DNA of 64,000 nucleotides from Rhodothermales bacterium (GCA_040904565.1 JBBDTI010000030.1:59772-123771); one strand, 5' to 3'. Shown: positions 14,379 to 58,128, counted from the stretch's first letter. Numbers and translations are program-made. The notes: generated from the letters alone by a model not told the origin.

Positions 14379-14496
14379 GAGGCGTGACCTTCATCAAACC
14401 GACCACCACTTTCCGGAATCCGGTCCGCCTGCGACGATTTCATACTGACAACGACGACTTCAAAACAACCGTCATGACGACCGGCCCGCTTATATA

Positions 14497-26143: not shown

Positions 26144-26371
26144 TCTCGTCACGTTCTGTTCGCTCTTCATGCGCCCGCGTGGCCTCTTCATGCTGGCTCT
26201 ACCTTTACGCGTCTCGGAGTCGTACCGCCACCACAGCATTACGGAATCCGCGCTTGCGACTTGCTTCGGATCATCCGTCTCCGTTTCCGCACGCCGAATG
26301 CTCTGGGAGGACTCTGCTTTTGAATCGGGCATGCATTTTCTACGCGACTCGTCACCACACCACGAGCTATC

Positions 26372-28267: not shown

Positions 28268-28301
28268 TCTCCCCCCCAGGAAAAACGGACCCAACCTGAT
28301 C

Positions 28302-28400
28302 TGAACCGCCCCGGGTTTGCCCGAGACGCCAACATGTGAGAACTTGGAGTCATGGGCAGATTTCAACGGTACGCTCCCGAGGTCCACGATCTGGGGGTGC
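28302..28400 (+). mobile_element. IS3-family (IS51-group-like) left-end remnant with the first codons of orfA
   Basis: TGAACCGCCCCGGGTTTGCCCGAGAC, then GGAG and ATG 28352 giving MGRFQRYAPEV, like an orfA N-terminus. A second IS3-like end (TGATCTCCCCCCC..GGAC) may lie at 28265. Confidence 0.65.
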
Positions 28401-28464
28401 AACATCCCTTTATGGGCTACACACAACGGCTTGCCGAGGGTATGACGACAACCGGACCCGAATC

Positions 28465-29262
28465 ATGAGCGACCCCTTCGTCCCACACGTCGGCGGAATT
28501 CTCAGCGCCGACATCGCCGTTCCCGAACACGAACGCGAGGTGCGCTTCTAAGCGCGTGTACTCAGCACGGGCGAGCATCCTCTCTGGCGGGAGGACCTGA
28601 CGAACAACATCGGGATGCCGATCATCGGAGTGGGCGCACGCAGCTCCGAATATGCCCACCTTCCGCTCCAGTGGATGCCCCACGTTCAGGTCACCGACGT
28701 CGCAGTCAGTGTGGAGCGTGCGCTCGATCTGGGCGGCAGCGAGCTGATGCATTCCAAAAACGATGGTGGAGAGAGCCAGTGGGCCGTCCTACTCGATCCG
28801 AATGGGGCGGCGTTCGGGATTATCCCGGTCGTGCCCGCGGAGGCGATCCCCCCGGCGGATGGCTACGCGTCGAACGACGCGTCGGCGCGGGTGGGTCGTG
28901 TCGCCTGGATCAACCTGACCGTCTCCAACGCTTCCGCAACCCGGGACTTTTATCGACAGGTCGTTGGCTGGTCGGTGGAGGCGGTCGAGATGGCGGACGC
29001 AGGATAGGTCTACGCCGACTACAATATGCTGGGAGAGGATGGAAATCCCGCGGCGGGCGTCTGCCACGCGCGCGGAGCGAACGAGGATCTGCCGCCTGTC
29101 TGGATGATCTACCTCCCCGTGGCTGATATCACCGAAAGCCTCCGCCGAGTGGAGGAGCAAGGGGGTAAGATCGTCAAGGAGGCTCGGGGGAAAGATGGGG
29201 AGTACGCATATGCGGTGGTCCAGGACCTCGCCGGAGCGTACCTGGCGTTGTCGCCCGGGTGA
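28465..29262 (+). pseudogene. VOC/glyoxalase-family two-domain protein with two in-frame stops
   Basis: One frame from MSDPFVPH to LALSPG with TAA at 28549 and TAG at 29005; QWMPHVQV, DPNGAAFG, WMIYLPV motifs. Confidence 0.85.
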
Positions 29263-29423
29263 CGAGGTGCTTGCCCTCCGGCCAACTCCAGGCTACGACG
29301 GAGTGGGAAATCGGCTGAACACGTAGCCGAGCCCGGAAAAACGGTCCTGAACCTCGCTATTCCCGCCCGTATACCCTGCAACAGCTTCGGCGCTAGCCGT
29401 CACGTCGTCAAAACGTCAATACG

Positions 29424-30542
29424 TCACGACGTCTCCACACGCTCTTTATCTGCCGTACAGGGAATGGTAAACGAGAAGGTGCTCCCTTCGCCCACTGTGC
29501 TCTCCGCCCAGATCCTGCCGCCGTGAGCTTCAACGATGTACCTGGAGATGTATAGGCCGAGGCCCAGGCCTTTCTGATCGTTCTGGTCGACCTGCCAGAA
29601 CCGCTCAAAGACGGCCGTCAGCATGTCGTCGCGAATACCGCATCCCGTGTCGCTGACGGAAACCAGGACCTCATCGCCGGCGAGTTCGCCACGCACCCGG
29701 ATACTGCCGCCCTTAAACGAGAACGTGATGGCGTTCGTGATGAGATTGGCCAGCACCTGAAGCATCCGGTCGTAATCGAATTGCGCCGGGATGTATTGCT
29801 GGGTCATCTCCGCTTTAAGAGTGATCCCCTTCGCCAATGCGGGAGCCTCGAACATCTCCACGGCCTCGGCGATGAGTTTTGCCGCATCTGCCTGTTCCGG
29901 CACCACCCGAAGTTTACCGGCATTGATGCGCGTGACGTCAACCAGGTCCCCGATGAGCCGGTTCATACGGGCCGTGAAGCGTTCGATTCGGTTCGTTTCG
30001 ACGAGGATCTTCTTTCCTTCCTCATTGCTCGTGACGCGCCTGGCGATATTCCTGACGCTCATCGCGATTCCGCCAAGGAGGTTGCGCAGATCGTGGCTCG
30101 CAATGCCCATAAAGTCGTCGCGATTAGAAAGGGCGTCATCGGAACGAGCGCGCTCGATCAGGAGATTCCTGTCGGTCTTGCTCCTTTCGAGCGGCAGCAG
30201 CGTTTTGAGCGCGCGCGCAACCTCTTCGCGTTCGCGCCGAAGGCTCTCGTCTGCAAAGGCGCGCTCATCCTGGAGGGCTTCGTCTTCAAGCTCTCGGGCT
30301 TCGACGACGGCGGCGTTCGACTCTTTTCCCTGCCCTGTTCCCGCCTGTTTCTTGTCCGCCCTGTCGCGCGCGGCGTTTACGTTAGCATCCGATTCCTCCC
30401 GGGAATGACGAACCCATTCATCGGCGTCGTCTTCGACGACCTGCTGCTCCTCGATCACGCGATCCACCTTTTCACGTTCACTACGGAGGCTTTCGTCCGT
30501 ACGCTCACGGACTTCCGAGGCGTTTTTCTCTTCGTCAGCCAT
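29424..30542 (-). CDS. Soluble sensor histidine kinase
   Basis: H-box ASHDLRN, N-box NLITNA, DTGCGI, GLGLGLYI, GEGSTF; charged N-terminus with no TM. Start placed at MADEEK. Confidence 0.92.
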   Translation of the reverse strand: MADEEKNASEVRERTDESLRSEREKVDRVIEEQQVVEDDADEWVRHSREESDANVNAARDRADKKQAGTGQGKESNAAVVEARELEDEALQDERAFADESLRREREEVARALKTLLPLERSKTDRNLLIERARSDDALSNRDDFMGIASHDLRNLLGGIAMSVRNIARRVTSNEEGKKILVETNRIERFTARMNRLIGDLVDVTRINAGKLRVVPEQADAAKLIAEAVEMFEAPALAKGITLKAEMTQQYIPAQFDYDRMLQVLANLITNAITFSFKGGSIRVRGELAGDEVLVSVSDTGCGIRDDMLTAVFERFWQVDQNDQKGLGLGLYISRYIVEAHGGRIWAESTVGEGSTFSFTIPCTADKERVETS

Positions 30543-30783
30543 ACGAAATCTCGTCTCTGCGCACCAATGCACACTCTGATAACCGGTGATCGCCGCTGTA
30601 TCCGTGTCATCCCAGTTATGGCTGAGAACTAACGCAGCCAGCAATTTTCAGGATTGAAGATACCACCCACCCAATTGTTTCGGCGCCGCAAGTGTTTTGA
30701 ACCGTACTTAGTATCGGTTGATTTTACAGGATAGAAGGGACTGACAATAAAGAGCTTGCAGAAAATCTTTCGATCATCGAGCC

Positions 30784-33009
30784 CTACGCCAGCGCGGCCG
30801 ATACCCGCTCCGGCGTGAACGGAATACGGCGAAGGCGCACGCCGGTCAGGGCGGCGAACGCATTGGCTACGGCGCCGCCTACGAGTGGGAGGCTTGATTC
30901 ACCCAGTCCGGAGGGATGCTCCTCGGACGCCACGAAGCGCACGTCAACCTCGGGCATGCCGGACATCCGCAGTACGGGATAGTCGGTAAAGTTCGACTGT
31001 TGCACCCGGCCGTTCTTGAAGGTGACGCTCTCGTACAGGATGCTGCTCAAACCGTGCGCGATGCCGCCCTCGATCTGCGCCAGCGCGCTGTCGGGCTGCA
31101 CGATGATGCCCCCATCGAGGGCGACCCAGAACCGGTGCACGCGGATCCGTCCGGACGAGCGGTCCACCGAGATTTCTGCCACGCCGGCCCCCAGCGAGCC
31201 GCTCTGCTCGGCGAACGCGATGCCGCGGGCGCGTCCGTCCGGCACGGCGCTGCCCCAGTCGGCCATCTCCGCGACGGTGTCCAGCACCGTGCGGGCGCGC
31301 GGCGCCCGCTGCATCAAACGGCGGCGGAAGTCGTAGGGATCTGCGCCCTGATCCGCGGCGATCTCGTCGAGGAAGGCCTCGATGGCGAACTTGTTGAATC
31401 CGTGTCCGACCGAGCGCCAGTAGTGAAGCCGCACGCCCGTGTCGACCGCGCAGCGCTCGATGGCCTGGTTCGGGATGTCGTAGAACGGGATCTCGATGCC
31501 GGAAGTGAGGAGTCCACCGCCGTCCCCGACAATGCAGTGCCGCCACGCTGTTACGTTGCCGTCGTCGTCGACGCCGGCCCAGAGGCGCTGCAGGTTCATC
31601 GGCCTGAACATCCCATAATGCAGGTCGTCCTCCCGCGTCCAGATCAGCTTGACGGGGCGGCGCACTTCGCGCGAGAGTCGCACGGCCTCCACCACGAAAT
31701 CCGAATTCGACCGGCGGCCGAAACCGCCGCCCAGGAGACGCCGGTGGATCGTCACGGCCGACTCGTCGACGCCGGCGATGCGCGCCGCCTCGCTCTTTAC
31801 ATCCTCGGGCGACTGCGTGCCGACCCAGATTTCGACGCCGTCGTCGCGCACGGACGCCACGGCGTTGAGCGGCTCCATCTGCGCGTGATAGACGTGATCG
31901 CTGAGAAAATCGGCTTCGTATCGCTTCGCGGCTTCGTCGAGTGCGGCCGTGGCGTCGCCCTGCCGGTTGACCGCCTCGGCCAGTTCCTCCCGGCCGGCCA
32001 TGTCGGCGTACTCGGCGAGCCTGGCCTCACTGTCGAATTGCTCGGCCGGCGCACCCGGCTCCCAGTTAATCTCCAGCGCCTCGCGCGCCTTCATCACGTC
32101 CTCGATCGATTCAGCAATGATGCCGACCCCGTGATCCAGGCGGGCGGTCGTCGTCACACCGGGCATCGCGCGTATCGCGGCTTCGTTGTAGGAGGCGGGC
32201 GTGCCGTAGTGCACGGGCGAGCGGGTCACCATGCCGTAGACCATCCCGTCGACGTGTTCGTCGATGGCGAATCGCGCGCTGCCGTCCGTCTTGGCGGGGA
32301 TGTCGATGCGGGGGACTGAGCGTCCGATCAGGCGGAAGTCCTGCGGCGATTTCAGAAGCGTCTCGGAAACGTCCGGCATCTCGGTCGGCACTTCCGCGAA
32401 GGCGGCGATCTCGCCGTACGTCAGCCGGCGGCCGCTGGGCGTGTGGATCACCACGCTCGGTTCGGTCGTCAGCTCGTTGATCGGGACGTCAAGCCGGCGC
32501 GCGGCATCTTCCAGCAACACACGACGAATCTGCGCGCCCACGAGGCGGAGCTGCGTGAAATATGAGTTCACCGTTCGGCTTCCGACGGTCATCATGCTCC
32601 TCGAGCCGCCCCAGGCCGGACTGCCGTAGACGTCGCCGTCGACGGGAGCGTCGTCTACGCGGACATCCGCCCAGTCGGCGTCCATCTCTTCGGCGATCAA
32701 GACGGGCAGGGCGGTCTTGGAGCCCTGCCCCATTTCGGCGGCCGGATTCAGAATGAGAATGCCGCCGTCCGCGTCGATGGTGACCCACGCGCCGACACCT
32801 GTCGACGATTGCGGTGGCATATAGCTGGTGGCCGTCTGCGCGACGGCCCGCATGCCGGTACGTCCGGCGACGACCGCAAAGGCGAGTCCGGTGCCTGCCG
32901 TCCTCAAAAAGTCACGCCGGGAATAGCCGGCGGCATCTTGCCGTGTCGCGGATACGTCGCGGCCGGCACGTCCCGCCGATTCCCGATTCTTTTCTCCAAT
33001 GGTCGGCAT
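30784..33009 (-). CDS. iorB: Isoquinoline 1-oxidoreductase beta-like molybdopterin subunit, Tat-exported
   Basis: SRRDFL Tat motif, AEMGQG, HAQMEP, LGGGFGRR, WTREDD, QIEGG, GLGE. Confidence 0.9.
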   Translation of the reverse strand: MPTIGEKNRESAGRAGRDVSATRQDAAGYSRRDFLRTAGTGLAFAVVAGRTGMRAVAQTATSYMPPQSSTGVGAWVTIDADGGILILNPAAEMGQGSKTALPVLIAEEMDADWADVRVDDAPVDGDVYGSPAWGGSRSMMTVGSRTVNSYFTQLRLVGAQIRRVLLEDAARRLDVPINELTTEPSVVIHTPSGRRLTYGEIAAFAEVPTEMPDVSETLLKSPQDFRLIGRSVPRIDIPAKTDGSARFAIDEHVDGMVYGMVTRSPVHYGTPASYNEAAIRAMPGVTTTARLDHGVGIIAESIEDVMKAREALEINWEPGAPAEQFDSEARLAEYADMAGREELAEAVNRQGDATAALDEAAKRYEADFLSDHVYHAQMEPLNAVASVRDDGVEIWVGTQSPEDVKSEAARIAGVDESAVTIHRRLLGGGFGRRSNSDFVVEAVRLSREVRRPVKLIWTREDDLHYGMFRPMNLQRLWAGVDDDGNVTAWRHCIVGDGGGLLTSGIEIPFYDIPNQAIERCAVDTGVRLHYWRSVGHGFNKFAIEAFLDEIAADQGADPYDFRRRLMQRAPRARTVLDTVAEMADWGSAVPDGRARGIAFAEQSGSLGAGVAEISVDRSSGRIRVHRFWVALDGGIIVQPDSALAQIEGGIAHGLSSILYESVTFKNGRVQQSNFTDYPVLRMSGMPEVDVRFVASEEHPSGLGESSLPLVGGAVANAFAALTGVRLRRIPFTPERVSAALA

Positions 33010-33012
33010 GGC

Positions 33013-33479
33013 TCAGCCCTCCTCTACGGCGCGTTCGATGGCACTCAGGATGCGTTTGTACGTGCCGCATCGACAGATGACGGCGTCCATGTGGCTCACG
33101 ATCTCCTCGCGAGAGGGTGCGGCGTTTTGCTTCAGCAGCGCGGCGGCCTGCATGATCTGGCCGGACTGGCAGTAGCCGCACTGCGGCACCTGCTCTTCGA
33201 TCCAGGCCTTCTGGAGCGGATGACTCCGGTCGGGGGACAGCCCTTCGATGGTCGTGACGGCGCGTCCCTCGACACCCGAGACCGGCTGCAGGCAGGCCCG
33301 CGTGGGCGCGTCGTCGATGTGGACCGTGCAGGCGCCGCACGCTCCGACGCCGCATCCGTCGTCCCGGTCAGCAGCAGGTGCTCGCGGAGCACCCAGAGCA
33401 GCGGGAGGTCGCCGGGCGCATCCACGGAGACCTCTTCGCCGTTGAGGTGAAAGTGGATGAGTTGAGAGCGGATCGCCAT
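33013..33479 (-). pseudogene. iorA: (2Fe-2S) subunit of the same oxidoreductase, frameshifted near 33360
   Basis: [14 protein letters not shown], then a frame change to [27 protein letters not shown]; about 4 nt are missing from the usual TGTKYGC. Confidence 0.88.
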
Positions 33480-33801
33480 GGGAGCACCCCTCATGAATCG
33501 GGATTCAGACGCGGTTGGTTTCGAAATCCGTGGCGCAAGGTGAGGACGGAGGTATTCGCGCCGGGAACTGCTCCATCAAAGGTCGCGACGTGGGCGGTGC
33601 GGTGCAAGTAAAATCGAGTTGTGGTCGGAGCTTCTGTGCGCGACCGTTGTTCACGCCCCAACTCGGGGTTCCACTCATTTTTCCACGACGAAGGTTCTGC
33701 GGATCGTGGTCTTGAGATGGCGTTCGTAGCCGGCGTGGCTGCTTGCGGCCCAGCAGGAGTTCGCCTGACCGTGAGGTCTACATATATGGGGGTGTAAAGT
33801 T

Positions 33802-34266
33802 ATGACGCAAATGCTGGAATGGATGATGCTCCACGTGCGGTGGGCCGACCGCCGAACGGAGGCCTCGCTGCGTGCGTTTTCCTCCATCCCGGACGAGGCG
33901 ATCCGGTTGTTCGCCCACGTGGCGACGGCGGAACGGATTTACATACTTCGGATGCGAGGCGAGGACCCGTTCCCGCAAGACTTCTGGCCGGACCTTACGC
34001 TCGACGAGGCCGCACGTACGGCATCCGAGGCCGGCGACGCGCTCCTGCCGTTCGTCCGGGAGAGCAGCGACGTCCAACTCCAGGCGCCGGTTCGCTACCG
34101 CAACAGCAAGGGCACATACTTCAAGACGCCGCTGGTGCAGATGCTAATGCACCTGTCGCACCATGGGGAGCATCATCGAGGTCAGATCGCTAGGATCATC
34201 AGGGAAGCGGGGGGCATCCCTGCGGTGACGGATTTTATCTCTTTCGTGCGAGAAGAGCATCCGTAG
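33802..34266 (+). CDS. DinB family protein
   Basis: FAHVATAE, VRYRNSKG, HLSHHGEHHRGQI. Confidence 0.9.
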   Translation: MTQMLEWMMLHVRWADRRTEASLRAFSSIPDEAIRLFAHVATAERIYILRMRGEDPFPQDFWPDLTLDEAARTASEAGDALLPFVRESSDVQLQAPVRYRNSKGTYFKTPLVQMLMHLSHHGEHHRGQIARIIREAGGIPAVTDFISFVREEHP

Positions 34267-34426
34267 CCTAATCGTAGGCATATCCCCGCGCCGCAGGCTG
34301 TGAGCCTGGCTTCCCCCGGGGAGCATGACGGCAAGATGTTGCACTTCGGCGTCCGGAACAGCGGGCGGCAGTCCGCCCGATACACGCACGGCAACGCCGT
34401 CGGTCGGCGTGCGTATATTGCAATGG

Positions 34427-34879
34427 ATGGAAAAGCACACGCCGATATCAGATGGGAAGGGCCCGTCTTTAGCCGAAGCCGAGCGTTTTGAGACGATCGT
34501 AGAGATGCTGCGGCGTGCCGTTCCGTTGGTGCAGGCGATCTATCTCTTCGGTTCGCAGGCAAAGGGTCGCGTCCATCGGGAGAGCGACATCGATCTGGCG
34601 ATCCTCGCGCCGGAGCCGGTCGCTCCGGAAGACCGTCTTGACGTACAGGAGGAGCTTTCCGTTCGGTTCCGATCCGACGTCGATCTCGTCGACCTCATGT
34701 CGGCATCAACGGTCATGCGGATGCAGGTCGTCACCACCGGCAGCCTGCTCTTCGAAGACGAGCCGGCCGTGCGGCACTTCTTCGAGATGCGGACGCTGTC
34801 CGCGTATGCTCTGCTCAATGAGGAGCGCACCGGGCTACTGGAGCACGTCCGTCGTCGGGGGCGCATCTATGGTCGATGA
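34427..34879 (+). CDS. mntA: Type VII TA antitoxin, MntA-like nucleotidyltransferase
   Basis: YLFGSQAKG..ESDIDLA (GSx10DxD), VDLVDL; overlaps the HEPN gene. Confidence 0.88.
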   Translation: MEKHTPISDGKGPSLAEAERFETIVEMLRRAVPLVQAIYLFGSQAKGRVHRESDIDLAILAPEPVAPEDRLDVQEELSVRFRSDVDLVDLMSASTVMRMQVVTTGSLLFEDEPAVRHFFEMRTLSAYALLNEERTGLLEHVRRRGRIYGR

Positions 34880-35291
34880 CGTGCTCACCAACAAGGTCGC
34901 TGCGATCGAGCGGAGCCTCGATAGGATAGAGGAGGAGTACTCCGGAGACCTACGCAACCTCTATGACAACATCACACGGCAGGATTCCATCGTATTGAAC
35001 CTGCAGCGTGCCTGTCAATCAGCGATCGACCTTGCGATGCACGTCGTTCAGATCCACGGGCTCGGTGTGCCGCAAGAAAGTCGCGATGCGTTCGCGTTCC
35101 TTGTCGACGAGGGACTGCTCGATCAGGAGCTGGGTGATCGTATGATGAGAATGGTAGGGTTCCGCGATATCGCAGTACATGAATATCAGCGGATCAACCT
35201 GGATGTGGTGAAATCAATTCTCGATAATCGGCTCGACGATTTTCGCAGCTTCGCCTCGGTCGTCCTGCAAACAAGAGGATTCCGGACGTGA
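34869..35291 (+). CDS. hepT: Type VII TA toxin, HepT-like HEPN RNase (DUF86)
   Basis: LNLQRACQSAIDLA, GFRDIAVHEY (Rx4H followed by the conserved Tyr). Confidence 0.9.
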   Translation: MVDDVLTNKVAAIERSLDRIEEEYSGDLRNLYDNITRQDSIVLNLQRACQSAIDLAMHVVQIHGLGVPQESRDAFAFLVDEGLLDQELGDRMMRMVGFRDIAVHEYQRINLDVVKSILDNRLDDFRSFASVVLQTRGFRT

Positions 35292-35447
35292 GTTCGCGGA
35301 ATGGGCCACAGGGCGGTCGTCAAGCGGGCTGCCGGCTATCCGGCCACGTGGGGTCGGGAAAAGATCTGGACTGGACGTTACGGCCAGACTCCGAGCGTGT
35401 CTTTTATAGCGTCGGCATCGTGAACCGTACGGACACAAGCAGCGTAG

Positions 35448-35768
35448 ATGGATAGACGGAAGATCAAAAAGGACCTGCTCCATTCCGGTTTCGCTGACAT
35501 GCAGAGCGAGGCGCTGTCCTATCTGTTCGCCGAAATGGCGACGAAGGAGGATGTCCGAGAGCTCCGCTCGGAGATGCATGGTGAATTCCGTGCCGTCCGC
35601 GGGGAGATGCAGGTTATGAAGGCAGAGATGCACGCCGACATATCGGATTTGGGCAAGCAATTGATGGACGCCATTGCGTCCTATCAAAACAGGCTCTTCA
35701 CGCACGTTCTCGCGCTGATTGGCGCGCTCACGGCGATCATGACGCTGCTCCTGCTCCTGATTCGGTGA
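35448..35768 (+). CDS. Small coiled-coil protein with C-terminal TM (DUF1640/CCDC90-like)
   Basis: GF..MQSEAL, MATKEDV, heptad xRxEM repeats, hydrophobic C-terminus. Confidence 0.7.
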   Translation: MDRRKIKKDLLHSGFADMQSEALSYLFAEMATKEDVRELRSEMHGEFRAVRGEMQVMKAEMHADISDLGKQLMDAIASYQNRLFTHVLALIGALTAIMTLLLLLIR

Positions 35769-35840
35769 GACGAGGCTTCTGTCAAGAGTTGCTTCCGGCA
35801 CGAGTCAACGTCGCGACGGTTGCCCGGGGCCACGTCGCTG

Positions 35841-36469
35841 TTACGGCCCCAGCAGGGCCAGTGGAACGACGGCGACCCCGTCGCGGCGGCGGTAGGCCTG
35901 CGGGCCGGTCGTTACGATTACGGCGTCGAGCAGGTCGTTGCCTAGACGATCCCGAAGCCAGAGTAGATGCCGAACATCCGCGTCATCCGCCGTGCGGCTC
36001 AGCTTGATCTCGAAGGCGACGACGCGCTGATCGTCCCGCTCGACGATCAGGTCCACTTCCTGCCGCCCGCCAGCCGTTCGAAGATGGCCCACCGTCGCTT
36101 CAGCACCCTGGGCGTAGACGCGGATGGAAAGCGCGGCGAGGGATTCGAACAAATGGCCGAGTAGCGTTCCGTCGCGGGGTATGGCCGGGCCGGAGCTCCG
36201 GAGTCCACCGCGCGTCGTACGCTGTCCCACACCGCGGGTACGCGCTGCCATTCATCGAGCAGGACGGGCGGATCCCCCTGAAGGAGCTGTTCCGGGTCCG
36301 CCTCGGCTATGGCCTGCTGTGCCGGGTCGTCGAGCCTATAGACGGTGACCGCCCGCTGTAACGCCGTTTCGGTCTTGCCAACTCCCCTGGCACCTTCCAG
36401 GGCTACGGCCGGAAGCGCAGGCAAGAGCTCGTCTAGCTCATCGTCAACAATGCGTCGGAGGTAGGACAT
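35841..36469 (-). pseudogene. AAA_14 + DUF4143 ATPase with a large internal deletion
   Basis: N-terminus GARGVGKT..LLDEWQ..WDSVRR joined out of frame near 36190 to the C-terminus GHLFES..EVDLIVE..FEIK. Confidence 0.88.
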
Positions 36470-40810: not shown

Positions 40811-42868
40811 CTAGAAGCTCACGGCAGCACCGGCGCGCAGCATGCGTCCCGGCCCGGGAAGCCCGAGCTGCGATACCACGGGCGCATCGGTCAGATTGTC
40901 GCCGCGAATGAAGAGCTCCGCCGTCGCCACGCCCACGACGTGGTCGAAGCGATACCCGATGCGTGCATTCAGCGAAAGTGACGGATCCAGCGGCACGAAC
41001 GAATTGTCCTCGCTCTGGGAATAGGCCGCGCCGGTATAGACCGTTTCGAGAAGGGCCGAAAGTCCCGTCTGGCCGATATAGCGTAGCATGGCCGTACCGA
41101 GTACCTCCGGCCGCTCCGCGAGCCGAACGGGGTCGTCCGCTTCGTCCCGGAGTGACCGGACGTCCATGAACGTGACGTGGCCGTTCACGGCGAGATAGCG
41201 CACGGGCCGAACCTCAGCCACAAGCTCCACCCCCAAGATCCGGCTGCCTTTCAGGTTGATGCGCTGCCGCCGCCGCTGTCCGTCTACCGTGACGTGCAAT
41301 TGACCTATACTTTCGGAGGTTCGGTTTAAGAAAGGGACGATCTCCATCGAAAAAGAGGATTGCGCGAGTCCTCCTCCCGCTTCGGCGATCAGTGCTGATT
41401 CGGGGGCGAGATCGGGATTGACCAGGAATCGGTGCATTGCTTCACCGAAAAGCTCCCGCATCGTGGGGAACCGCGTCTTGCGTCCGGCGGCGGCGCGGAG
41501 GTAGAAGCCTTCGATGCCGTCGTAGCGTCCTCCCAGTGTCGCACTGTATGCGCGGAAGGGATCGCGCTCCGGTTTGTCGCCCGTTTTGGGCATGAACATG
41601 ACGTCGCGGCCGGCACTCATCGTTAGCGTGAACCGGCGCGTTACCGGTAACTCGTACGCGGCGCCGAGGCTGAGGAGGCGCTGGCGATAGGCAAAGCGGG
41701 GGGCCACGTCGGGCAGCGCGTCCTTGTTCTCGTCGAAATCCATCTCGCGCTGGTGGTGGGTCGAGATGAGACCGTTGCCGGCCACGCGCAGTGTGCCGGG
41801 TCCAATCTCACGCGCTACCGTCAATCGGATACCGTGCGTCAGGTCGCTGTCTTCCTGCCGCGATCTTGCGTGGTCGAAATCGAGGGAGCCATACGCGTCG
41901 ATCGTCTGCTCGAATCGGCCCGTCCAGCTCGTGGCCTTCCAGCGCGTAGGTCCGGCCAGGCGACCCTCGCCGCTGAATATGCCCATCGTGTAGCGCCAGA
42001 GAGGATAGCGCCAGAGCCGCGCGCGGTCGGTCGGCACGTGCCCCTCCGGCGCCACGCCCTGCTGCGCCTCCACATGGTAGATGGTCGCGCCGAGCGTGGC
42101 GCGATCTCCGAATCGGTAGACGCCGCGCATGAATCCGTTTGCGACGCGGCGGTCCGTATTTGTACGCAGGGCACGCTCCAGCTGATTAAACGGAAGCCGC
42201 GCATCGTCGGGAAGCGGCATGCCCTCCCGCTCGAAAAATCCGACCGAGGCGGCATAACCCAGTCCACCGATTCGTCCGCGATGCGTAATCTCCGCCTGGA
42301 TCGTTCCTGCCGTCCCGCCAAGCGCCGAGGCCTCGGTGAATTGCCCTTCCGAGGCGAGGGAAGGCGAGGTGATGTGGATGACGCCGCCGGGAACGTTGGC
42401 ACCGTATTCGACGGCTGCAACACCTCGAGTCACCGTCATGCCGCCGACCATTCCGCCCGGGATCAGGGCAAGGTCGAGGCGGTTGTCCCACGGCACGTTG
42501 AGCGCGGCTCCGTCGTAGAAGATAGCTGTCTGGCGCTCGTCGCTTCCGCGCAGATAGACGAGGGTCTCGCCGCGAGAGTTCGTCGTGACGTGCGCTGCGG
42601 CCACCTGGCGGAGCAGCCCGGCGGCCGACGGCGCCTCGACCCCCTCGATAACGGACACCGGTAGGCGCTGTACCGTGGAGACCTCATCCCGCTCCCGCTG
42701 ACCGGCCCGCACGACGACCTCCTTCAGGCTGCCGGAGAGCAAGGAGTCGGGTTCCGTTCTCTCGTCGACATCTTGTGCGGCTGTAGGACCCGCCGCCGGC
42801 ACGGCGATCAATCCCAAAATTATCAGGATGCCCCGCATCCTGCATCTGAACGATGTCAGGCGCATCAT
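40811..42868 (-). CDS. TonB-dependent receptor
   Basis: Signal peptide, LKEVVV TonB box, plug YLRG..GGVIHI, NPDLAPE, C-terminal Phe. Confidence 0.9.
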   Translation of the reverse strand: MMRLTSFRCRMRGILIILGLIAVPAAGPTAAQDVDERTEPDSLLSGSLKEVVVRAGQRERDEVSTVQRLPVSVIEGVEAPSAAGLLRQVAAAHVTTNSRGETLVYLRGSDERQTAIFYDGAALNVPWDNRLDLALIPGGMVGGMTVTRGVAAVEYGANVPGGVIHITSPSLASEGQFTEASALGGTAGTIQAEITHRGRIGGLGYAASVGFFEREGMPLPDDARLPFNQLERALRTNTDRRVANGFMRGVYRFGDRATLGATIYHVEAQQGVAPEGHVPTDRARLWRYPLWRYTMGIFSGEGRLAGPTRWKATSWTGRFEQTIDAYGSLDFDHARSRQEDSDLTHGIRLTVAREIGPGTLRVAGNGLISTHHQREMDFDENKDALPDVAPRFAYRQRLLSLGAAYELPVTRRFTLTMSAGRDVMFMPKTGDKPERDPFRAYSATLGGRYDGIEGFYLRAAAGRKTRFPTMRELFGEAMHRFLVNPDLAPESALIAEAGGGLAQSSFSMEIVPFLNRTSESIGQLHVTVDGQRRRQRINLKGSRILGVELVAEVRPVRYLAVNGHVTFMDVRSLRDEADDPVRLAERPEVLGTAMLRYIGQTGLSALLETVYTGAAYSQSEDNSFVPLDPSLSLNARIGYRFDHVVGVATAELFIRGDNLTDAPVVSQLGLPGPGRMLRAGAAVSF

Positions 42869-49667: not shown

Positions 49668-50801
49668 TTAGGCGAGTCCCGACGGGATCGCGACCGGGGC
49701 GTCCTCATGGGTCAGTTCGCTTTCCTCAGGGTCGGGTTTGTTACGCCACCAGTTCGCCAGTGCCGAGCCCGAGATGTTCATCCAGGGGCCGAAGATCGCC
49801 GGCGCCAGCCCTACGGTCGAGGCCATTCCCATGTTGGCGGCAATACCCGTGGCCAGGCCTCCGTTCTGCATCCCGACCTCCAGCGCGATCGTCCGGCAGG
49901 ACTGCTCGTCCATTCCGACCGCACGTCCACCCCAGTAGCCCAGCAGGTAGCCGATGGCATTGTGCAGGATCGCGGCCACGAAAAGCAGCGGGCCGATTAT
50001 GAGGAGGTTGTCCCTTCCGGCTGCAACGATGATGGTCAGCACGATGGCGATGGCCGCCATCGAGAGCAAGGGCATCGCCTCGCTCAGCCACCGCGCCCGA
50101 CCGTCCAGGAGCCTGTTGACGATCAAACCGAGCACGATAGGAAGCAGGACGATCTGAGCGACGCTGAGCATCATCGCGACGAAATCGACCGGGACGAACT
50201 GACCGGCAAGGACCTGCATCAGTAGCGGCGTCATAAGCGGAGCCGCCAGGGTCGATACGGCCGTCATCGTGATGGAGAGCGCGAGGTTGGCACGCGCGAT
50301 GTAGGCCATCACGTTCGAGGCCACGCCGCCGGAGACCGAGCCGACCAGCACGATGCCTGCCGCCACCTCATCCGGAAAGCCGAACGTCCACGCGATCGTA
50401 AGACCGACCAGCGGCATGATGGTGAACTGACAGACGAGCCCGACCAGCACGGCCCTGGGCATCTTTGCCACGGCGCCGAAATCCCGCAAGCTCATCGACG
50501 TGCCCATCCCGAACATGATGATCATGATGAGCGGTACGATGAGGCGTGTCAGCTCGAAGTCGCCCGCCGTGAGGAAATACTGTGGGTAATACATCGCCAC
50601 CGCGACGGAGACGAAGATCCAGATGGTGAAAGTCAGCTGGCTCAGCAGCGGAATCGCTCGAGAGCCAAGAGCGAGCGTCACCAGGCCTCCCACGACGAAC
50701 GGACCGGTAGAGGCGATTCCATGCCCGAGGATGAGCGCGCCGGCCGCACCGAGGGCACAGGCGGCGGAGAGGGCCAGGAGAGTTCGATAAGCGGCTTGCA
50801 C
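49668..50801 (-). CDS. Bile acid:sodium symporter (BASS) family transporter
   Basis: IMFGMG, GGVASNVMAY, ALEVGMQNGGLA. Confidence 0.93.
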   Translation of the reverse strand: MQAAYRTLLALSAACALGAAGALILGHGIASTGPFVVGGLVTLALGSRAIPLLSQLTFTIWIFVSVAVAMYYPQYFLTAGDFELTRLIVPLIMIIMFGMGTSMSLRDFGAVAKMPRAVLVGLVCQFTIMPLVGLTIAWTFGFPDEVAAGIVLVGSVSGGVASNVMAYIARANLALSITMTAVSTLAAPLMTPLLMQVLAGQFVPVDFVAMMLSVAQIVLLPIVLGLIVNRLLDGRARWLSEAMPLLSMAAIAIVLTIIVAAGRDNLLIIGPLLFVAAILHNAIGYLLGYWGGRAVGMDEQSCRTIALEVGMQNGGLATGIAANMGMASTVGLAPAIFGPWMNISGSALANWWRNKPDPEESELTHEDAPVAIPSGLA

Positions 50802-50854
50802 GGGGTCTCAGCTGAACAGGTCAATGGGTAATGTCGAGACCGCGGCCCGATGCA

Positions 50855-52138
50855 CTACTCGAAAAACGGGACACCTTCCGTCGCGTACGGACGCATCCCA
50901 TCCTCGTTGATTTCGACGCCGATGCCCGGCTTCTCCGACAGCGTGATGAAGCCGTCCTCGACCTTCGGCCCATCGTACGAGACGATCTCGTCGAACATCG
51001 GATTGGAGTGAAAATAGGTCTGCCATTCCAGGATCATGAAATTGGGGACCGACGCGCATACGTGGCAGGCGGCCATCGCTCCGAGATACGAGGCGACCAT
51101 GTGCGGGGCGAACGGAATGTAGTACAGATTGGCGAGGTTCGCGATGCGCTGGCCTTCGCCCAGCCCGCCGGCTTTCTGCAGATCCGGCATGATGATGTCA
51201 ACGGCCCCGATTTCGAGCAGGCGCCGGAAGCCGTGGGCGAGGTACAGGTTCTCGCCGGCGCAGATGGGCGTGCTCGTCGATTCCGTGATGTGCTTGTACG
51301 CTTCCACGTTCTCGGCCGGAATCGGCTCTTCCAGCCACATCAGATCGAGGGGCTCCATGAGCTTTGCCACCTTGTGCGCCGTTGGCGCATCGTACCGGCC
51401 GTGCATGTCCGCGCAGATGTCGACGTTTGGGCCGATCGCCTCACGGGCAGCCGAAATCTGATCGACCATGCGCTGGAGTTCGGCGGGGCTCGCCGTCCAG
51501 TTATAGCGATCGTATTTATTGGGATCGTTGGCCTGGTCGAGATCGAACTTGATCGCGGTGAACCCCATCTCCACGGCCTCCGACGCACTGGCCGCGAACT
51601 GCTCGGGGGTGGGAAGGCGAAACTGATACAGGGCGGTGTCCATGTACACGCGAATCCGGTCGCGGAATTTGCCGCCGAGCAGCTGGTAAACCGGAACGCC
51701 GAGGGCCTTGCCGGCAAGGTCCCACAACGCCGTTTCGACGGCGGAAAGCACGGCGACGAACATGCCGGACTGTGCGCCCTCGAAGAATCCGGATCGGCGG
51801 ATGTGTTCGAAGAGCTGATGGACGTTGAGCGGGTTCTGTCCCTTGATCCGCTCGCCGAACATCTTGACCAGGTGGTAGGTGCCCGGCGTCGCATCGACGC
51901 CTTCCCCGCAGCCCCAGATGTCCTGATTCGTGTAGACCTTAACGAAAAGGCTGTGGCCGTTGCGTATGTACCCGCACTTGATGTCGGTGATTTCCAGGTC
52001 GGCCGGCCGAGACGCCAGGTCGGCACGCTCGACGGCCGACTCCAGACTCCGCCCGAACGCGGACAGAGGTGCGGCCGCGAGAACACCGGCAGCGGCGCTT
52101 TTTGCAAGGAATGAACGCCTCGTGTGAGTTCGTGCCAT
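50855..52138 (-). CDS. Mandelate racemase-subgroup (sugar-acid dehydratase-like) enzyme with a Tat signal
   Basis: TRRSFL, ETALWDLAGKALGVPVYQLLGG, KFD, ADMH, WLEEP, AGEN, PGIGVE. Confidence 0.9.
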   Translation of the reverse strand: MARTHTRRSFLAKSAAAGVLAAAPLSAFGRSLESAVERADLASRPADLEITDIKCGYIRNGHSLFVKVYTNQDIWGCGEGVDATPGTYHLVKMFGERIKGQNPLNVHQLFEHIRRSGFFEGAQSGMFVAVLSAVETALWDLAGKALGVPVYQLLGGKFRDRIRVYMDTALYQFRLPTPEQFAASASEAVEMGFTAIKFDLDQANDPNKYDRYNWTASPAELQRMVDQISAAREAIGPNVDICADMHGRYDAPTAHKVAKLMEPLDLMWLEEPIPAENVEAYKHITESTSTPICAGENLYLAHGFRRLLEIGAVDIIMPDLQKAGGLGEGQRIANLANLYYIPFAPHMVASYLGAMAACHVCASVPNFMILEWQTYFHSNPMFDEIVSYDGPKVEDGFITLSEKPGIGVEINEDGMRPYATEGVPFFE

Positions 52139-52143
52139 CGAGC

Positions 52144-53103
52144 CTACCAGGTTCTGGTTTCGAGGTATTCCTGAACTTGCTCTTTCGGAACGGGCAGCTC
52201 GTCGACGTGGTCGTTCAGCCACTGCGAGAAATCCCGCTCGATTTCGTCCGACCACCGCGAATCGATCTGTCCCGACGTGTACACGCCTTCCCGCAACCGC
52301 TGGTGTCCGAACATATCTCGGAGCCTGACGATCTCCGAGGTCTTGACCACGCGCTCGACGAGGTGAGGCGGGATGAAGATGACGCCGCCGTCTCTCCCCA
52401 GCACGACGTCCCCCGGCATGACGGTGGCCTTTCCGATTCGCGTAGGCTGGTTGATCCCGATCAGCGTGGTGTTGAGTGCACCGGCGGGATTGTTCAGATG
52501 ATGCGACGGATGGTAGCTCCGAACGAACGACGTGAAGTCGCCGAGCTCCTTCAGGCCGCTGATGTCTCGGATGGCCCCGTTGTAGACGATTCCGTTGCCG
52601 GATTTCGCATAGATGGCATTGCCGAGATTATCGCCGATTGTCGGACCGTCCTCGTGCGCGCCGAACTGATCGACGACGTACACGTCGCCATCCACCAGCA
52701 GGTCGACCGGCCATGAGTTCTGAGACTTGATTCGCCCGTCCTCTTCGTGACCTCTTCTGTCGATCACCCGGTGGATGTCGGGTCGGCCGGGTATAAAGGT
52801 GGCCGTCACGGCGCGGCCGACGAGCACGCTGTCCGGATTAATTTGCAGCCAGCCGTCGTCGTACTGGTGGTTGAAGTTGTCGCCTCTCAAGACGGCCCAC
52901 GCCTCTTCGAGCGTCACGAGCTTCATGCGCTCGAGAACGTAGTCCGGCACGCGAGGTCGACCGTCCGGGAAGCGGTCGCCGGACCATTCGGGGGTCAGGA
53001 ATACGAGCTCGTCTCTGGAGATTTGTTGTCCGGCGGCGGGCTCCGCTAGGAGGAGCCATGCGACAGCTGCCGTGAGGGCCAAAGTGAGGAATCGCGTCAT
53101 CAT
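52144..53103 (-). CDS. RraA-like / HMG-aldolase family protein with a Sec signal peptide
   Basis: MMTRFLTLAL..AAG|QQ; GRAVTA, IGDNL, GAIRD, PGDVVLGRDGGVIFIP. Confidence 0.85.
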   Translation of the reverse strand: MMTRFLTLALTAAVAWLLLAEPAAGQQISRDELVFLTPEWSGDRFPDGRPRVPDYVLERMKLVTLEEAWAVLRGDNFNHQYDDGWLQINPDSVLVGRAVTATFIPGRPDIHRVIDRRGHEEDGRIKSQNSWPVDLLVDGDVYVVDQFGAHEDGPTIGDNLGNAIYAKSGNGIVYNGAIRDISGLKELGDFTSFVRSYHPSHHLNNPAGALNTTLIGINQPTRIGKATVMPGDVVLGRDGGVIFIPPHLVERVVKTSEIVRLRDMFGHQRLREGVYTSGQIDSRWSDEIERDFSQWLNDHVDELPVPKEQVQEYLETRTW

Positions 53104-53466
53104 GCGATGGTTATCATGCGATCGTTGTTGCGTCGGGAGAACGATTGATGCGATCGGCGGCATGCAATATATATGAATTTTTGAGCCCGTGCGCATGAAC
53201 CGTAAGAGGCGGACCGTCATGCTCGGTAGCTCCGGACGGCCGGGGAGGTAGGACGGCTGGGGAGGTAGTCATACAAACTCGGCTCGAAGCCGTAGCGTCA
53301 GATGCCCGGCGGCCGAACTTTCGACATCGAAGCGACGACGCAAACAGGAAGCCGCTCCCGACCCGACTACTCACATTCAGCAGCAACATGCCGATTCGTT
53401 CGCGTCGATCGCCGACCGAGATGAGGGCATGATATAGTCCGAATGTCCCGCGCCATTGAAAACGAC

Positions 53467-53766
53467 CTCGTGGTCGCCGGCCTCTCGCGCCTCGCACTCG
53501 GATTTCTGTGGTACGGCCCCCTCTTCGGTCAAGTCCGGATGCGCTACATCGGGAAGACGGAGGAGGAGCTGAAGGCCGATTACTCGCCCATCGTCCACCT
53601 CTGGTCGCTGCTGTTGGCCCTCGTCATGGCGTTCATCCTCGCCGTCTTCATGAGCTGGGTCGGCATTGATGATCTCCTTCCCGGCCTTCCGGTGGGGCTG
53701 CTGGCCGGCATCGGGTTCACCTTCGTTCCGATTGCCGTTAACAACCTCTATGAGCGGAAGCCGTTC
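53467..53766 (+). pseudogene. DUF1761-like membrane protein fragment
   Basis: LGFLWYGPLFG..KTEEE..NNLYERKPF, then an abrupt junction. Confidence 0.7.
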
Positions 53767-54140
53767 GGCCGAATTGTGGCCCATAGCTGCGAGATCGAAC
53801 CCCTCGAGAATAGTGAGCATTTGCAGCGCGGCTATTCCCTGTCCGTTCGGCGGCAGCTCATACACGTCGTAGCCGCGGTAATTAACCGAGATCGGATCGC
53901 CCCATGTGCTCGTGTGCGCTTGCAGATCCTCCTTTCGCAGGTAACCCCCGATGAGGCGCATGTAGGCTTCCAAGACGTCGGCAATCTCCCCTTCATAGAA
54001 CGCATCGCACCCACCGCGGGCGATCAGCTCGTAGGTCTTCGCGAGGTCGGGATTCCTGAAGATATCGCCTTCGACATGCGCGCGTCCGTCGAGGAGATAC
54101 GTCTCCCTGAAGTTGTCGATTTCCTCGATCATCTCCAAGT
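53767..54140 (-). pseudogene. ggt: Gamma-glutamyltransferase internal fragment
   Basis: FRNPDLAKTYELIA..AFYEGEIA..YRGYDVYELPPNGQGIAALQML; both ends missing. Confidence 0.85.
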
Positions 54141-54265
54141 GACCTAGAATGGCGCCGATCTCGTCCTCCCAATCGAGCGCGATAGATTTGGTGACGCTGA
54201 GCGCGCCGAGAAGAAGAAACGAGCGCATGATGTCATTTCAACGACTGAACAAAAGCGAGTGCGGA

Positions 54266-57222: not shown

Positions 57223-58128
57223 TTAATCGCTAAGTGCAGCTAAGACAGGTTCGATATCTTCGCCCCGGGTTCGCAGGTAGTTAATCGGCGATTGGTACTC
57301 GATCAATGAGTGCCGTCGCCGGGTGTTGTACTTGGTAAATCGTTCTTTGAGTATCTGCCGGAGTTCGCCGAGCGTTTCGGCCTGGTTGATTCGGGATCCG
57401 ATCTCGTCCTTCATTCGGCTCCAGAGCGACTCGATCCACGGATTATCCTTACAGCCGCGCTCGGAGTACGACGCCCGGGCGCCGTCGCGGACGAGAAGCC
57501 GGTCAAGCCAATCGTAGCTGGTGTAGACGGCGTCCTGGTCGCTGTGGACCATGAGCCCGGCCGCAGAGCGTCCCAGGAGGCTTAGCGTCTCCTTGGCCTG
57601 CTTCCAGGCCCTGAGGGCGAGCTGCCGGTCTGCACGGCGTGAGAGGGTCCATCCGGGCACGAGCTTGCCGGCCACGTCGACGAACGCCATCAGGTAGGCT
57701 TTTCGAGATCCGTCGGCATACTTCAGTTCGGTGAAGTCCGTCGATAGAACCTCCAGCGGCCCGGGCGCCTCGCTGTCGGTGACGAGGTCAAGATGCCCGC
57801 GCGCCTGCTTCAGGATCTTCCGGACCGGACTCGGCTTGTGCTTCGGCACCGAGCGCTTCAGGGCCAGCTCGTGTTCCTTCAGCACGCGGCGGAGCCGCTT
57901 GTGATTGACGGTGTCCTCCATGCGCTCGTTCACCTCTGGCAAGAGCCGCCGGTAACCATATTCGGGATACTCTTCGATGACCTCGAGGAGCACCTCGAGC
58001 AGCGCGCGATCCTTCGCGCCCGGATCGGGCCTGCGAAGGCGGTCGTACCACGTGCTCTTGGCCAGACCGATCGCCTCGAGGCACCGGTTGAGGCCGTGGC
58101 GGTCTCGATGTCCTTTGACCAGTTTCAC
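57223..58128 (-). CDS. IS3 OrfB, DDE integrase core
   Basis: YGYRR, NHKRLRR, TDFTEL, HSDQ, DNPWIES, YNTRRRHS. Confidence 0.93.
   Translation of the reverse strand: MKLVKGHRDRHGLNRCLEAIGLAKSTWYDRLRRPDPGAKDRALLEVLLEVIEEYPEYGYRRLLPEVNERMEDTVNHKRLRRVLKEHELALKRSVPKHKPSPVRKILKQARGHLDLVTDSEAPGPLEVLSTDFTELKYADGSRKAYLMAFVDVAGKLVPGWTLSRRADRQLALRAWKQAKETLSLLGRSAAGLMVHSDQDAVYTSYDWLDRLLVRDGARASYSERGCKDNPWIESLWSRMKDEIGSRINQAETLGELRQILKERFTKYNTRRRHSLIEYQSPINYLRTRGEDIEPVLAALSD

Follow-up and report, generated by a model that had tools for sequence, protein, structure and literature searches.

Bacteria that catabolize acid sugars by well-described routes, such as the E. coli D-galactonate pathway (DgoD, DgoK, DgoA and DgoT), RhmD/RhmA and GudD/GarL, encode in one operon a dehydratase, a next enzyme that acts on its 2-keto-3-deoxy product, and a dedicated transporter. 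Every step of these routes takes place in the cytoplasm, and the transporter imports the intact acid sugar. To our knowledge, enolase-superfamily dehydratases and RraA-fold enzymes are known only as cytoplasmic proteins. Here we analyzed a 64,000-nucleotide stretch of DNA from a Rhodothermales bacterium (GCA_040904565.1, JBBDTI010000030.1:59772-123771; hereafter, the window) and found a three-gene unit encoding an RraA-like protein, an enolase-superfamily protein and a transporter of the bile acid:sodium symporter (BASS) family. The unit shares the operon plan of the E. coli-type routes but differs from them in the export signals on both enzymes, in the lack of an encoded kinase, in the fold of its second enzyme and in having a BASS-family carrier. 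On balance, the unit probably serves acid-sugar processing in the periplasm, where the dehydratase would act first and the RraA-fold enzyme next, with import of the product by the BASS protein.

Periplasmic handling of sugars is familiar from the glucose-fructose oxidoreductase of Zymomonas and the pyrroloquinoline quinone aldose dehydrogenases of Gluconobacter and Pseudomonas, which are exported by the twin-arginine translocation (Tat) or Sec pathway and make aldonolactones and aldonates in the periplasm. These systems stop at the oxidized sugar, which is then imported, and have neither a periplasmic dehydratase nor a carbon-carbon bond-cleaving or decarboxylating step there. Among RraA-fold enzymes, HMG/CHA aldolase (HMG, 4-hydroxy-4-methyl-2-oxoglutarate; CHA, 4-carboxy-4-hydroxy-2-oxoadipate; LigK/ProA/GalC; PDB 3noj), a class II pyruvate aldolase and oxaloacetate decarboxylase, shares its fold and its Asp and Arg-Asp equivalents with the window protein, but it serves cytoplasmic aromatic-ring cleavage and lacks a signal, the N-terminal motif and an enolase partner. 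FlDet of Flavobacterium sp. UMI-01, a 237-residue RraA-fold protein (accession LC519890), converts 2-keto-3-deoxyglucarate to alpha-ketoglutarate semialdehyde by dehydration and decarboxylation, and shows no activity on 2-keto-3-deoxygluconate (KDG), 2-keto-3-deoxy-6-phosphogluconate (KDPG), 4-deoxy-L-erythro-5-hexoseulose uronate (DEHU) or 4-hydroxy-2-oxoglutarate (Nishiyama et al., 2021, PMC8563752). Like the window protein, FlDet combines the RraA fold with G-D and R-D motifs and C-terminal helices, and its substrate is a 2-keto-3-deoxy acid from the preceding step; unlike the window protein, FlDet is cytoplasmic and lacks both a signal and the 30-residue N-terminal motif. No enolase-superfamily gene neighbors the FlDet gene in six orthologue loci, whereas the RraA-like gene of the window adjoins one.

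The three genes lie on the same strand in the order RraA-like, enolase-superfamily and BASS, as the original prediction had described, and its coordinates and gaps of 5 and 53 bp proved exact: the RraA-like gene ends in a TAG stop codon (52146-52144) 5 nt ahead of the enolase gene, which itself ends in a TAG stop codon (50857-50855) 53 nt ahead of the BASS gene. The window also holds longer open reading frames (ORFs) that begin further upstream, of 358 aa for the RraA-like gene (from 53220) and 466 aa for the enolase gene. These are not supported, and the starts in Table 1 are fixed, because RraA-like homologues are about 316 aa long and begin directly with the signal peptide, and enolase orthologues are 422-430 aa long. 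A scan for promoters and terminators found no terminator-like site between the three genes, with counts at shuffle expectation; sigma-70 consensus matches were also at shuffle expectation in a scan that does not cover promoters of the host's phylum. The closest named relatives of all three genes come from Rhodothermales metagenome-assembled genomes, and three loci (L005, L011 and L020) have the same gene order, with 83-86% identity to the window for the RraA-like protein, 86-87% for the enolase protein and 74-79% for the BASS protein.

A Sec-type signal on the RraA-like protein and a twin-arginine signal on the enolase protein had been proposed earlier, along with a check of whether they persist in orthologues, and both turned out to be conserved features of their families. 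Cleavage sites were assigned by eye and the signals were judged by conservation among homologues. The RraA-like N-terminus has one positive charge, about 16 hydrophobic residues and A-A-G followed by Q-Q. Scoring a presequence as hydrophobic when a 10-residue window reached a Kyte-Doolittle hydropathy of at least 1.6, we found a variable hydrophobic presequence (median 22 aa) ahead of a near-invariant Gln-Gln-Ile-Ser start in all of the 120 best database homologues, which are 76-100% identical to the window protein across the mature part and come from Bacteroidota classes and Rhodothermales. The -1 residue in these 120 proteins is alanine (68), glycine (41), serine (10) or leucine (1), and the -3 residue is likewise small. 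A glutamine at +1 corresponds to the Bacteroidetes Q-rule for signal peptidase I substrates (PMC5837995, PMC10653852). The enolase N-terminus carries T-R-R-S-F-L-A-K, a full twin-arginine consensus, and then a mildly hydrophobic stretch up to A-F-G. A motif of the [ST]RRxF[LFIM] type is present in each of the 73 orthologues read from the locus set described below, and across the 36 enolase orthologues and paralogues of alignment A2 R7 and R8 never change, while the leader residues around them vary.

The signals extend to paralogues, with a signal-like N-terminus in 30 of 31 RraA-like paralogues (the sole exception is a truncated ORF call) and an arginine pair in all 32 enolase paralogues (28 by the strict pattern, four as S-R-R-E-T-L-K). 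Both signals are thus conserved far beyond chance. Signal-less RraA-like relatives begin exactly at the conserved mature part, which shows the leader to be an added module, and we infer from these patterns that both enzymes are exported out of the cytoplasm. A second type of exported enolase paralogue (L009:3375-4829, L013:9223-10707, L014:3136-4599 and similar) carries a conserved stretch of about 30 residues before the twin-arginine motif, much longer than ordinary Tat n-regions.

We then assessed how tightly the two enzyme genes are linked, scanning one genome per species and retaining the best 80 loci of 505 stretches that encode relatives. Directly downstream of the RraA-like gene, an enolase orthologue (71-87% identity) follows at every one of the 73 loci whose sequence extends for at least 1000 nt beyond that gene. 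Counting all 80 loci, the figure is 78, and in the remaining two the sequence ends too early to show it. A separate, evenly drawn sample of the phylum (401 genomes, 180 genera) contained the RraA-like subfamily (E ≤ 1e-40) in 23 genomes and 18 genera, and an enolase orthologue followed immediately in all seven genomes whose RraA-like orthologue has at least 66% identity. Clustering of 648 neighboring ORFs from the 80 loci identified SusD-like proteins (35 loci), SusC (26), BASS (22 by clustering, 25 by tblastn), FecR-type anti-sigma factors (15) and extracytoplasmic function sigma factors (4), with the recurrent order FecR-SusC-SusD-RraA-ENO-(third enolase)-(RraA2-ENO2)-BASS, a layout that has no glycoside hydrolase. 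In Bacteroidota the enzyme pair is therefore mapped between a SusC/SusD outer-membrane importer and a BASS inner-membrane carrier, and in Rhodothermales, including the window, only the BASS end adjoins the pair. Conservation of all three genes, proposed earlier as a check, holds in part: the RraA-like/enolase pair is invariably linked, but the full triad with BASS is largely a trait of Rhodothermales (the window and loci L005, L011 and L020). Isolates of Pontibacter, Larkinella, Emticicia, Chryseolinea and Imperialibacter are represented among loci L014-L076, and a Protein Atlas look-up added Acidobacteriota to the groups with similar clusters.

The enolase-superfamily protein has the expected architecture of an N-terminal capping domain and a C-terminal (beta/alpha)7-beta barrel (MR_MLE_N 39.1 bits, MR_MLE_C 216.7 bits). 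Its closest solved structure is PDB 2qq6 (350.9 bits over residues 50-426), a structural-genomics entry without assigned function. Matches to 15 NCBIfam models all fell below the respective cut-offs, with galactonate dehydratase (NF010624) at 262.6 bits against a cut-off of 311, followed by gluconate/galactonate dehydratase (219.8 bits), ManD (175 bits), talarate/galactarate dehydratase (141.9 bits), rhamnonate dehydratase (133.6 bits) and glucarate dehydratase (26.7 bits). In a BLASTP alignment with E. coli K-12 DgoD (30% identity), residues D244, H246, E270, E296, D319 and H346 fall opposite D183, H185, E209, E235, D258 and H285. We take D183, E209 and E235 of DgoD to be metal ligands, H185 to be the strand-3 histidine and H285-D258 to be the catalytic dyad, an assignment supported by these numbers landing on exactly these residue types in the K-12 sequence. 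The window protein thus has D244, E270 and E296 at the three metal positions, H246 as strand-3 histidine and D319/H346 as Asp-His dyad; among the 36 aligned sequences, D244, E270, E296 and H346 never vary, and at least 90% keep D319. With all six DgoD catalytic residues kept, the assignment as a sugar-acid dehydratase stands, and the protein looks like an active acid-sugar dehydratase of aldonate type. A muconate-lactonizing or aromatic-pathway function was rejected on the same residue set and on model scores (cycloisomerase 100.8 bits versus galactonate dehydratase 262.6 bits). A complex prediction of the mature dehydratase (residues 30-427, alignment A2) with the mature RraA-like protein (residues 26-319, alignment A1), run without controls, returned a score of 0.00 and a mark of 0.32 but no verdict, and we base no conclusion on it.

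The RraA-like protein matches PF03737 (60.4 bits) and gives a confident AlphaFold2 model (pLDDT 91.8, pTM 0.86), for which the top Foldseek matches are 3k4i, 3noj (HMG/CHA aldolase; E 2.8e-14), 5x15 (RraAS2), 5ir2 and 2c5q. D158, R179 and D180 align with D102, R123 and D124 of 3noj. In HMG/CHA aldolase, work by Wang and colleagues from 2010 reportedly assigned Arg123 a catalytic role and placed Asp124 and Asp102 at the metal site. Among 42 sequences R179 and D180 are at least 90% conserved and G157 is invariant, while D158 varies in paralogues. The subfamily also has an extra, near-invariant N-terminal segment (T37, W40, G42, R44, D47, G48, R49 and P50) that other RraA-fold proteins do not have. 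The window protein lies well below the cut-offs of the HMG/CHA aldolase models (45.6 and 49.1 bits, against cut-offs of 304.5 for TIGR02798 and 179 for NF006731) and of the model for RraA, the RNase E inhibitor (NF006875, 20.4 bits against 136), and its conserved signal would moreover place it outside the cytoplasm, away from RNase E.

We compared the protein with FlDet by means of stand-ins, that is, orthologues picked with NF006093 (PRK08245) and the published FlDet N-terminal peptide. NF006093 selects frames of 237-262 aa in six of the 401 sampled genomes, at 332-346 bits. We equate NF006093 with the FlDet family because one of these frames (L109:1498-2211, 332 bits) is 237 aa long and matches 15 of the 19 published N-terminal residues of FlDet. 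NF006093 outscores every other model on the window protein (85.5 bits) and on all seven other members of its subfamily that were tested (range 69-127 bits), with CHA aldolase models at 33-65 bits, and the window protein is 27% identical to an FlDet orthologue over 243 aa (BLASTP). By sequence, therefore, the closest characterized relative of the RraA-like protein is FlDet, a dehydratase/decarboxylase and not an aldolase. Since all scores lie far below the NF006093 cut-off of 208, the exported subfamily is best regarded as a sister of FlDet and not as a member of its family; the window protein also departs from the FlDet type (about 237 aa, no signal, cytoplasmic) in being a signal-bearing precursor of 319 aa with the extra N-terminal segment. 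At three of the six FlDet-orthologue loci, the signal-less FlDet gene adjoins a gene for a 315-322-aa protein with a twin-arginine motif (L106:459-1406, L108:2228-3190 and L110:510-1478); the one of these three that was examined (L106:459-1406) has no NCBIfam match.

Other partners of the subfamily bear on its likely substrate. The genome of the window encodes a second exported RraA-like paralogue (55% identity; contig C3), and divergent from it runs a cluster (28061-36067; L084:2062-10068) encoding a GSDH-like protein, a RidA protein with a Tat motif, a SelA-like pyridoxal phosphate (PLP) enzyme with a Tat motif, a signal-bearing amidohydrolase and a CBM9-like protein. This collection of export-signal-bearing proteins of normally cytoplasmic enzyme kinds looks like a periplasmic route for amino-sugar acids. 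Its PLP enzyme is a homologue of glucosaminate ammonia-lyase (DGL; 116 bits; related structure PDB 7lc0). In Salmonella, D-glucosaminate is degraded by DGL ammonia-lyase (DgaE) and KDPG aldolase (DgaF). The same arrangement of lyase and next enzyme surrounds the RraA-like paralogue here and in six other sampled genomes; compared with the Salmonella pathway (7lc0; PMC9529869), the next enzyme is of RraA fold and not KDPG aldolase, and the DGL-type homologues of this genome carry Tat motifs, so that they would meet unphosphorylated substrates.

RidA is encoded beside the DGL homologue wherever this was checked (this genome, L013 and L018), and in L013 and L018 the RidA and lyase genes, both with twin-arginine motifs, close the operon FecR-SusC-SusD-RraA1-ENO1-RraA2-ENO2. 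Across the phylum sample, the RraA-like subfamily is present in 10 of 10 genomes with a glucosaminate ammonia-lyase homologue compared to 23 of 401 overall, and the two genes lie at most 6 kb apart in seven of the ten; related genomes are not independent, although five or more families are involved. A partnership with two unrelated sources of 2-keto-3-deoxy acids is what would be expected of an enzyme that takes such acids onward. Signal-less RraA-like relatives (40-42% identity) at 20 metagenome loci adjoin genes for a PfkB kinase (15 loci) and a KDPG/2-keto-4-hydroxyglutarate aldolase (12 loci), and in one lineage also for a LarA-like protein, a zinc alcohol dehydrogenase and a TctC-type carboxylate transporter; no enolase or BASS gene occurs beside them at any of the 20 loci. 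These operons place the RraA-like subfamily in 2-keto-3-deoxy-sugar-acid metabolism, and judging by its relatives the exported enzyme most likely processes 2-keto-3-deoxy acids in the periplasm.

In a 532-aa signal-bearing protein (P0127), a complete DUF1080 (3-keto-disaccharide hydrolase) domain is joined to an RraA-like domain; this fusion appears to be genuine and ties the subfamily to periplasmic metabolism of oxidized sugars. Other apparent fusions were set aside: P0202, P0204 and P0219 have one shared N-terminal part on different truncated domains and were treated as assembly or gene-call chimeras, and P0211 and P0224 have partial domains and look like chimeras.

Genes around the pair are heterogeneous, yet genes for sugar-oxidizing, lactone-opening or acid-sugar proteins recur, several of them signal-bearing. 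Examples are giant ThuA-GSDH-PKD-cytochrome c proteins and a DUF1080 protein (L011 and L020), a 7-bladed lactonase with a signal (L038), a GMC oxidoreductase (L075) and a Gfo/Idh/MocA protein with a signal (L031). The GSDH-type genes, which neighbor the pair in L011 and L020 as well as the contig C3 paralogue, recall the periplasmic sugar oxidation systems. Some Cytophagales have glucuronoxylan genes near the pair (GH10 and GH115 in L073; CE15 in L055, L056 and L074, with UxuA next to CE15 in L055). In a Rhodothermia genome, a TIM-barrel protein with a twin-arginine motif that resembles UxuA and xylose isomerase, potentially another exported dehydratase-like enzyme, is encoded directly upstream of two RraA-like/enolase pairs (L008:2095-3279).

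The transporter has an SBF domain (PF01758, 134.4 bits) and an N-terminal extension of about 55 aa. It scores below the cut-offs for characterized subfamilies (256.8 versus 400 bits for PanS NF047939; 235.5 versus 326.3 bits for TIGR00841), and a homologue search returned only unannotated or generically named relatives (58-85% identity) that give no clue to its cargo.

From these data we propose that exported dehydrogenases and lactonases generate an acid sugar in the periplasm, or that TonB-dependent (SusC/SusD) import delivers one there. The enolase-superfamily enzyme would fold with Mg2+ in the cytoplasm and be exported by Tat, a pathway that would suit an enzyme assembling with its metal, probably as an oligomer, before it crosses the membrane. 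In the periplasm it would abstract the alpha proton and eliminate the 3-hydroxyl group by DgoD-type His/Asp-His chemistry to give a 2-keto-3-deoxy acid. The Sec-exported RraA-fold enzyme would bind this 2-oxo acid at its metal/Arg-Asp site and yield a small 2-oxo acid, most likely by retro-aldol cleavage to pyruvate and an aldehyde or, alternatively, by FlDet-like dehydration and decarboxylation, and the BASS protein would carry the product across the inner membrane. We rank retro-aldol cleavage above the FlDet-like reaction because the dehydratase is of aldonate type by its galactonate and glucarate scores, and because KDG-type acids are the expected products of the lyase partner. The original prediction of sugar-acid processing outside the cytoplasm thus draws support from the conserved signals, the linkage, the DgoD-type residues and the SusC/SusD-BASS setting, whereas cleavage, which it inferred, is now one of two candidate chemistries. 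Its aldolase yielding pyruvate fares similarly: the Arg-Asp pair and Asp of HMG/CHA aldolase are kept, but FlDet, its closest characterized relative, acts on 2-keto-3-deoxyglucarate by dehydration and decarboxylation and leaves KDG uncleaved (PMC8563752), and cytoplasmic relatives already have a neighboring KDPG aldolase.

Several observations weigh against this proposal. FlDet is a dehydratase/decarboxylase instead of an aldolase and leaves KDG and KDPG unconverted (PMC8563752), and all eight subfamily members tested score best on the FlDet-family model. A simple aldolase role is further weakened because an aldolase, which would then be redundant, is already encoded beside the signal-less relatives. 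The genome has five more enolase paralogues with Tat motifs and no RraA-like gene called beside them (Table 1), the contig C3 RraA-like paralogue has no enolase gene called beside it, and one enolase copy in the phylum sample (62% identity, G215) has no RraA-like match nearby; the two families are therefore not obligate partners. The BASS gene is missing from 55 of the 80 loci, and neither SusC/SusD nor a sugar dehydrogenase adjoins the unit in the window. The same five paralogues would make Tat export of the enolase superfamily a general trait of this organism, although two further enolase paralogues (C51 and C42) have no Tat motif.

An alternative that we consider unlikely, though not negligible, is an oxidative uronate or aldarate route in the same place and order, in which an aldarate such as glucarate or galactarate, formed from uronic acids in the periplasm, would be dehydrated, the RraA-like enzyme would act as FlDet does to form alpha-ketoglutarate semialdehyde, and the BASS protein would import this compound for oxidation to 2-oxoglutarate. 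FlDet is an RraA-fold enzyme with exactly such an activity (PMC8563752), the subfamily scores higher on NF006093 than on CHA aldolase models and retains 27% identity to an FlDet orthologue, and the glucuronoxylan genes of the Cytophagales loci would fit a uronate source. However, the dehydratase is closer to aldonate models than to those for glucarate or talarate/galactarate and has DgoD-type residues, the NF006093 scores remain far below the cut-off, FlDet is without the conserved N-terminal motif of the subfamily, and the scanned neighbor proteins (representatives and not every ORF) include no aldehyde dehydrogenase. The lyase homologue is also expected to yield KDG-type acids, which FlDet refuses. 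It is less probable again that the exported pair acts on something other than free acid sugars, such as an oxidized oligosaccharide end, a 4-O-methyl uronate, tartrate (via oxaloacetate to pyruvate) or another hydroxy or amino acid. The DgoD-type residue set, the ranking of sugar-acid dehydratase models and the sugar-acid settings of relatives all argue for acid sugars, and nothing indicates a specific alternative substrate; even so, the enolase superfamily spans many acid substrates, 2qq6 has no function, every equivalog cut-off was missed, and SusC/SusD importers usually take oligomers, although the common layout has no glycoside hydrolase. HMG/CHA aldolases and D-tartrate dehydratase possess the activities that such a route would require.

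By analogy with the binding of RraA to RNase E, the RraA-like protein could instead be a non-catalytic partner of the dehydratase (a regulator, chaperone or subunit), which would account for the strict adjacency and fixed order of the genes, for an RraA-like paralogue accompanying each paralogous dehydratase of such loci, and for the very high conservation (76-89% identity) among the 120 best homologues. We regard this as improbable: the Arg-Asp pair and the metal-site glycine and aspartate are kept, the RraA regulator model scores far below its cut-off, and the subfamily also occurs without an enolase partner, beside lyase and RidA, beside kinase and aldolase, or alone. That both proteins are cytoplasmic, with signals arising from wrong starts or chance hydrophobic N-termini, is extremely improbable; the window does contain the longer ORFs, and the signals were read from sequence conservation, but homologue lengths fix the starts, the signals are kept by all 120 RraA-like and all 73 enolase relatives despite a leader that is otherwise variable, the arginine pair is invariant, and signal-less relatives start precisely at the mature part.

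Extending the periplasmic proposal beyond this unit, we raise as a possible but doubtful generalization that oxidized sugars are broken down by a non-phosphorylative route wholly in the periplasm of Bacteroidota, Rhodothermales and some Acidobacteriota. Aldoses or amino sugars would be oxidized there, Tat-exported dehydratases or Tat-exported PLP ammonia-lyases with RidA would give 2-keto-3-deoxy acids, the RraA-fold enzyme would act next, and only a small 2-oxo acid would cross via BASS. Such a route would put a central-type carbon pathway in a new compartment and give Tat export of enolase-superfamily proteins its first physiological role.

The protein families and their chemistry are already known; what is new is the compartment, the pairing and the type of locus, together with the FlDet relationship, the lyase/RidA partnership and the cytoplasmic relatives of the RraA-like subfamily that neighbor kinase and aldolase genes. 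The suggestion that the pathway is undescribed agrees with a full-text literature search, reaching few subscription journals, in which we found no description of exported enolase-superfamily or RraA-like enzymes or of such a locus. A sizeable minority of the genomes sampled from a major polymer-degrading phylum encode the two enzymes together, each with an export signal. If the proposal is true, a function could be assigned to several uncharacterized protein families, one of which has thousands of homologues in databases, SusC/SusD loci without a glycoside hydrolase would be explained, and a 2-oxo acid would become the physiological cargo of a BASS transporter. It would also widen the chemistry of the periplasm from oxidation and hydrolysis to dehydration and carbon-carbon cleavage or decarboxylation. 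The labels now in use ('regulator of RNase E activity RraA', 'mandelate racemase/muconate lactonizing enzyme' and 'bile acid:sodium symporter') are misleading for these proteins.

Table 1. Positions of the three-gene unit and its signals in the window, and of further Tat-motif enolase paralogues on other contigs of the genome
Feature	Position	Strand	Details
RraA-like gene	52144..53103	-	319 aa precursor; exported subfamily with N-terminal T-x-x-W-x-G-x-R-x-x-D-G-R-P motif
Sec/signal peptidase I signal peptide, RraA-like protein	53029..53103	-	Residues 1-25; predicted cleavage A-A-G / Q-Q
Enolase-superfamily gene	50855..52138	-	427 aa precursor; mandelate racemase subgroup, putative DgoD-like acid-sugar dehydratase
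Twin-arginine (Tat) signal peptide, dehydratase	52052..52138	-	Residues 1-29; T-R-R-S-F-L-A-K; predicted cleavage after A-F-G
BASS/SBF-family secondary transporter gene	49668..50801	-	377 aa; GTG start
Upstream intergenic region, presumed promoter region of the unit	53104..53376	-	273 nt; no unit ORF inside
Tat-motif enolase paralogue	C61 3130-4350
Tat-motif enolase paralogue	C61 4625-5857
Tat-motif enolase paralogue	C54 69654-70571
Tat-motif enolase paralogue	C58 34460-35560
Tat-motif enolase paralogue	C67 94403-95590

The unit is flanked in the window by genes for an exported PF12831 FAD oxidoreductase, a sulfatase and an AAA ATPase. We rejected these as parts of the system: none of the 80 related loci has an FAD-oxidoreductase or AAA match beside the pair, and sulfatase matches are weak (26-32% identity) and confined to three Imperialibacter loci. 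A TonB-dependent receptor without SusD is encoded about 7 kb from the unit (40811-42868). Part of a gamma-glutamyltranspeptidase gene (53377-54228; profile positions 132-258 of 512 only), probably a pseudogene, is found directly upstream of the unit, and an insertion sequence-type integrase (rve) gene (57223-58128) stands 4 kb beyond it. About 17 kb from the unit, a gene at 30784-33009 encodes a 741-aa molybdopterin-binding subunit of the aldehyde-oxidase/xanthine-dehydrogenase type; enzymes of this type are often periplasmic aldehyde oxidoreductases. Further away, a polysaccharide biosynthesis cluster (300-16746) with five sulfotransferase-family genes, glycosyltransferases of the GT2, GT4, GT61 and WecG types, a Wzy-like polymerase and an ATP-binding cassette exporter suggests production of a sulfated exopolysaccharide. 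Two genes (17762-22366 and 22547-26377) encode giant proteins, 1534 and 1276 aa long, that have C-terminal sorting domains for type IX secretion. Each contains a C-terminal GH115 domain, accompanied in the larger protein by PKD, Kelch and malectin domains.

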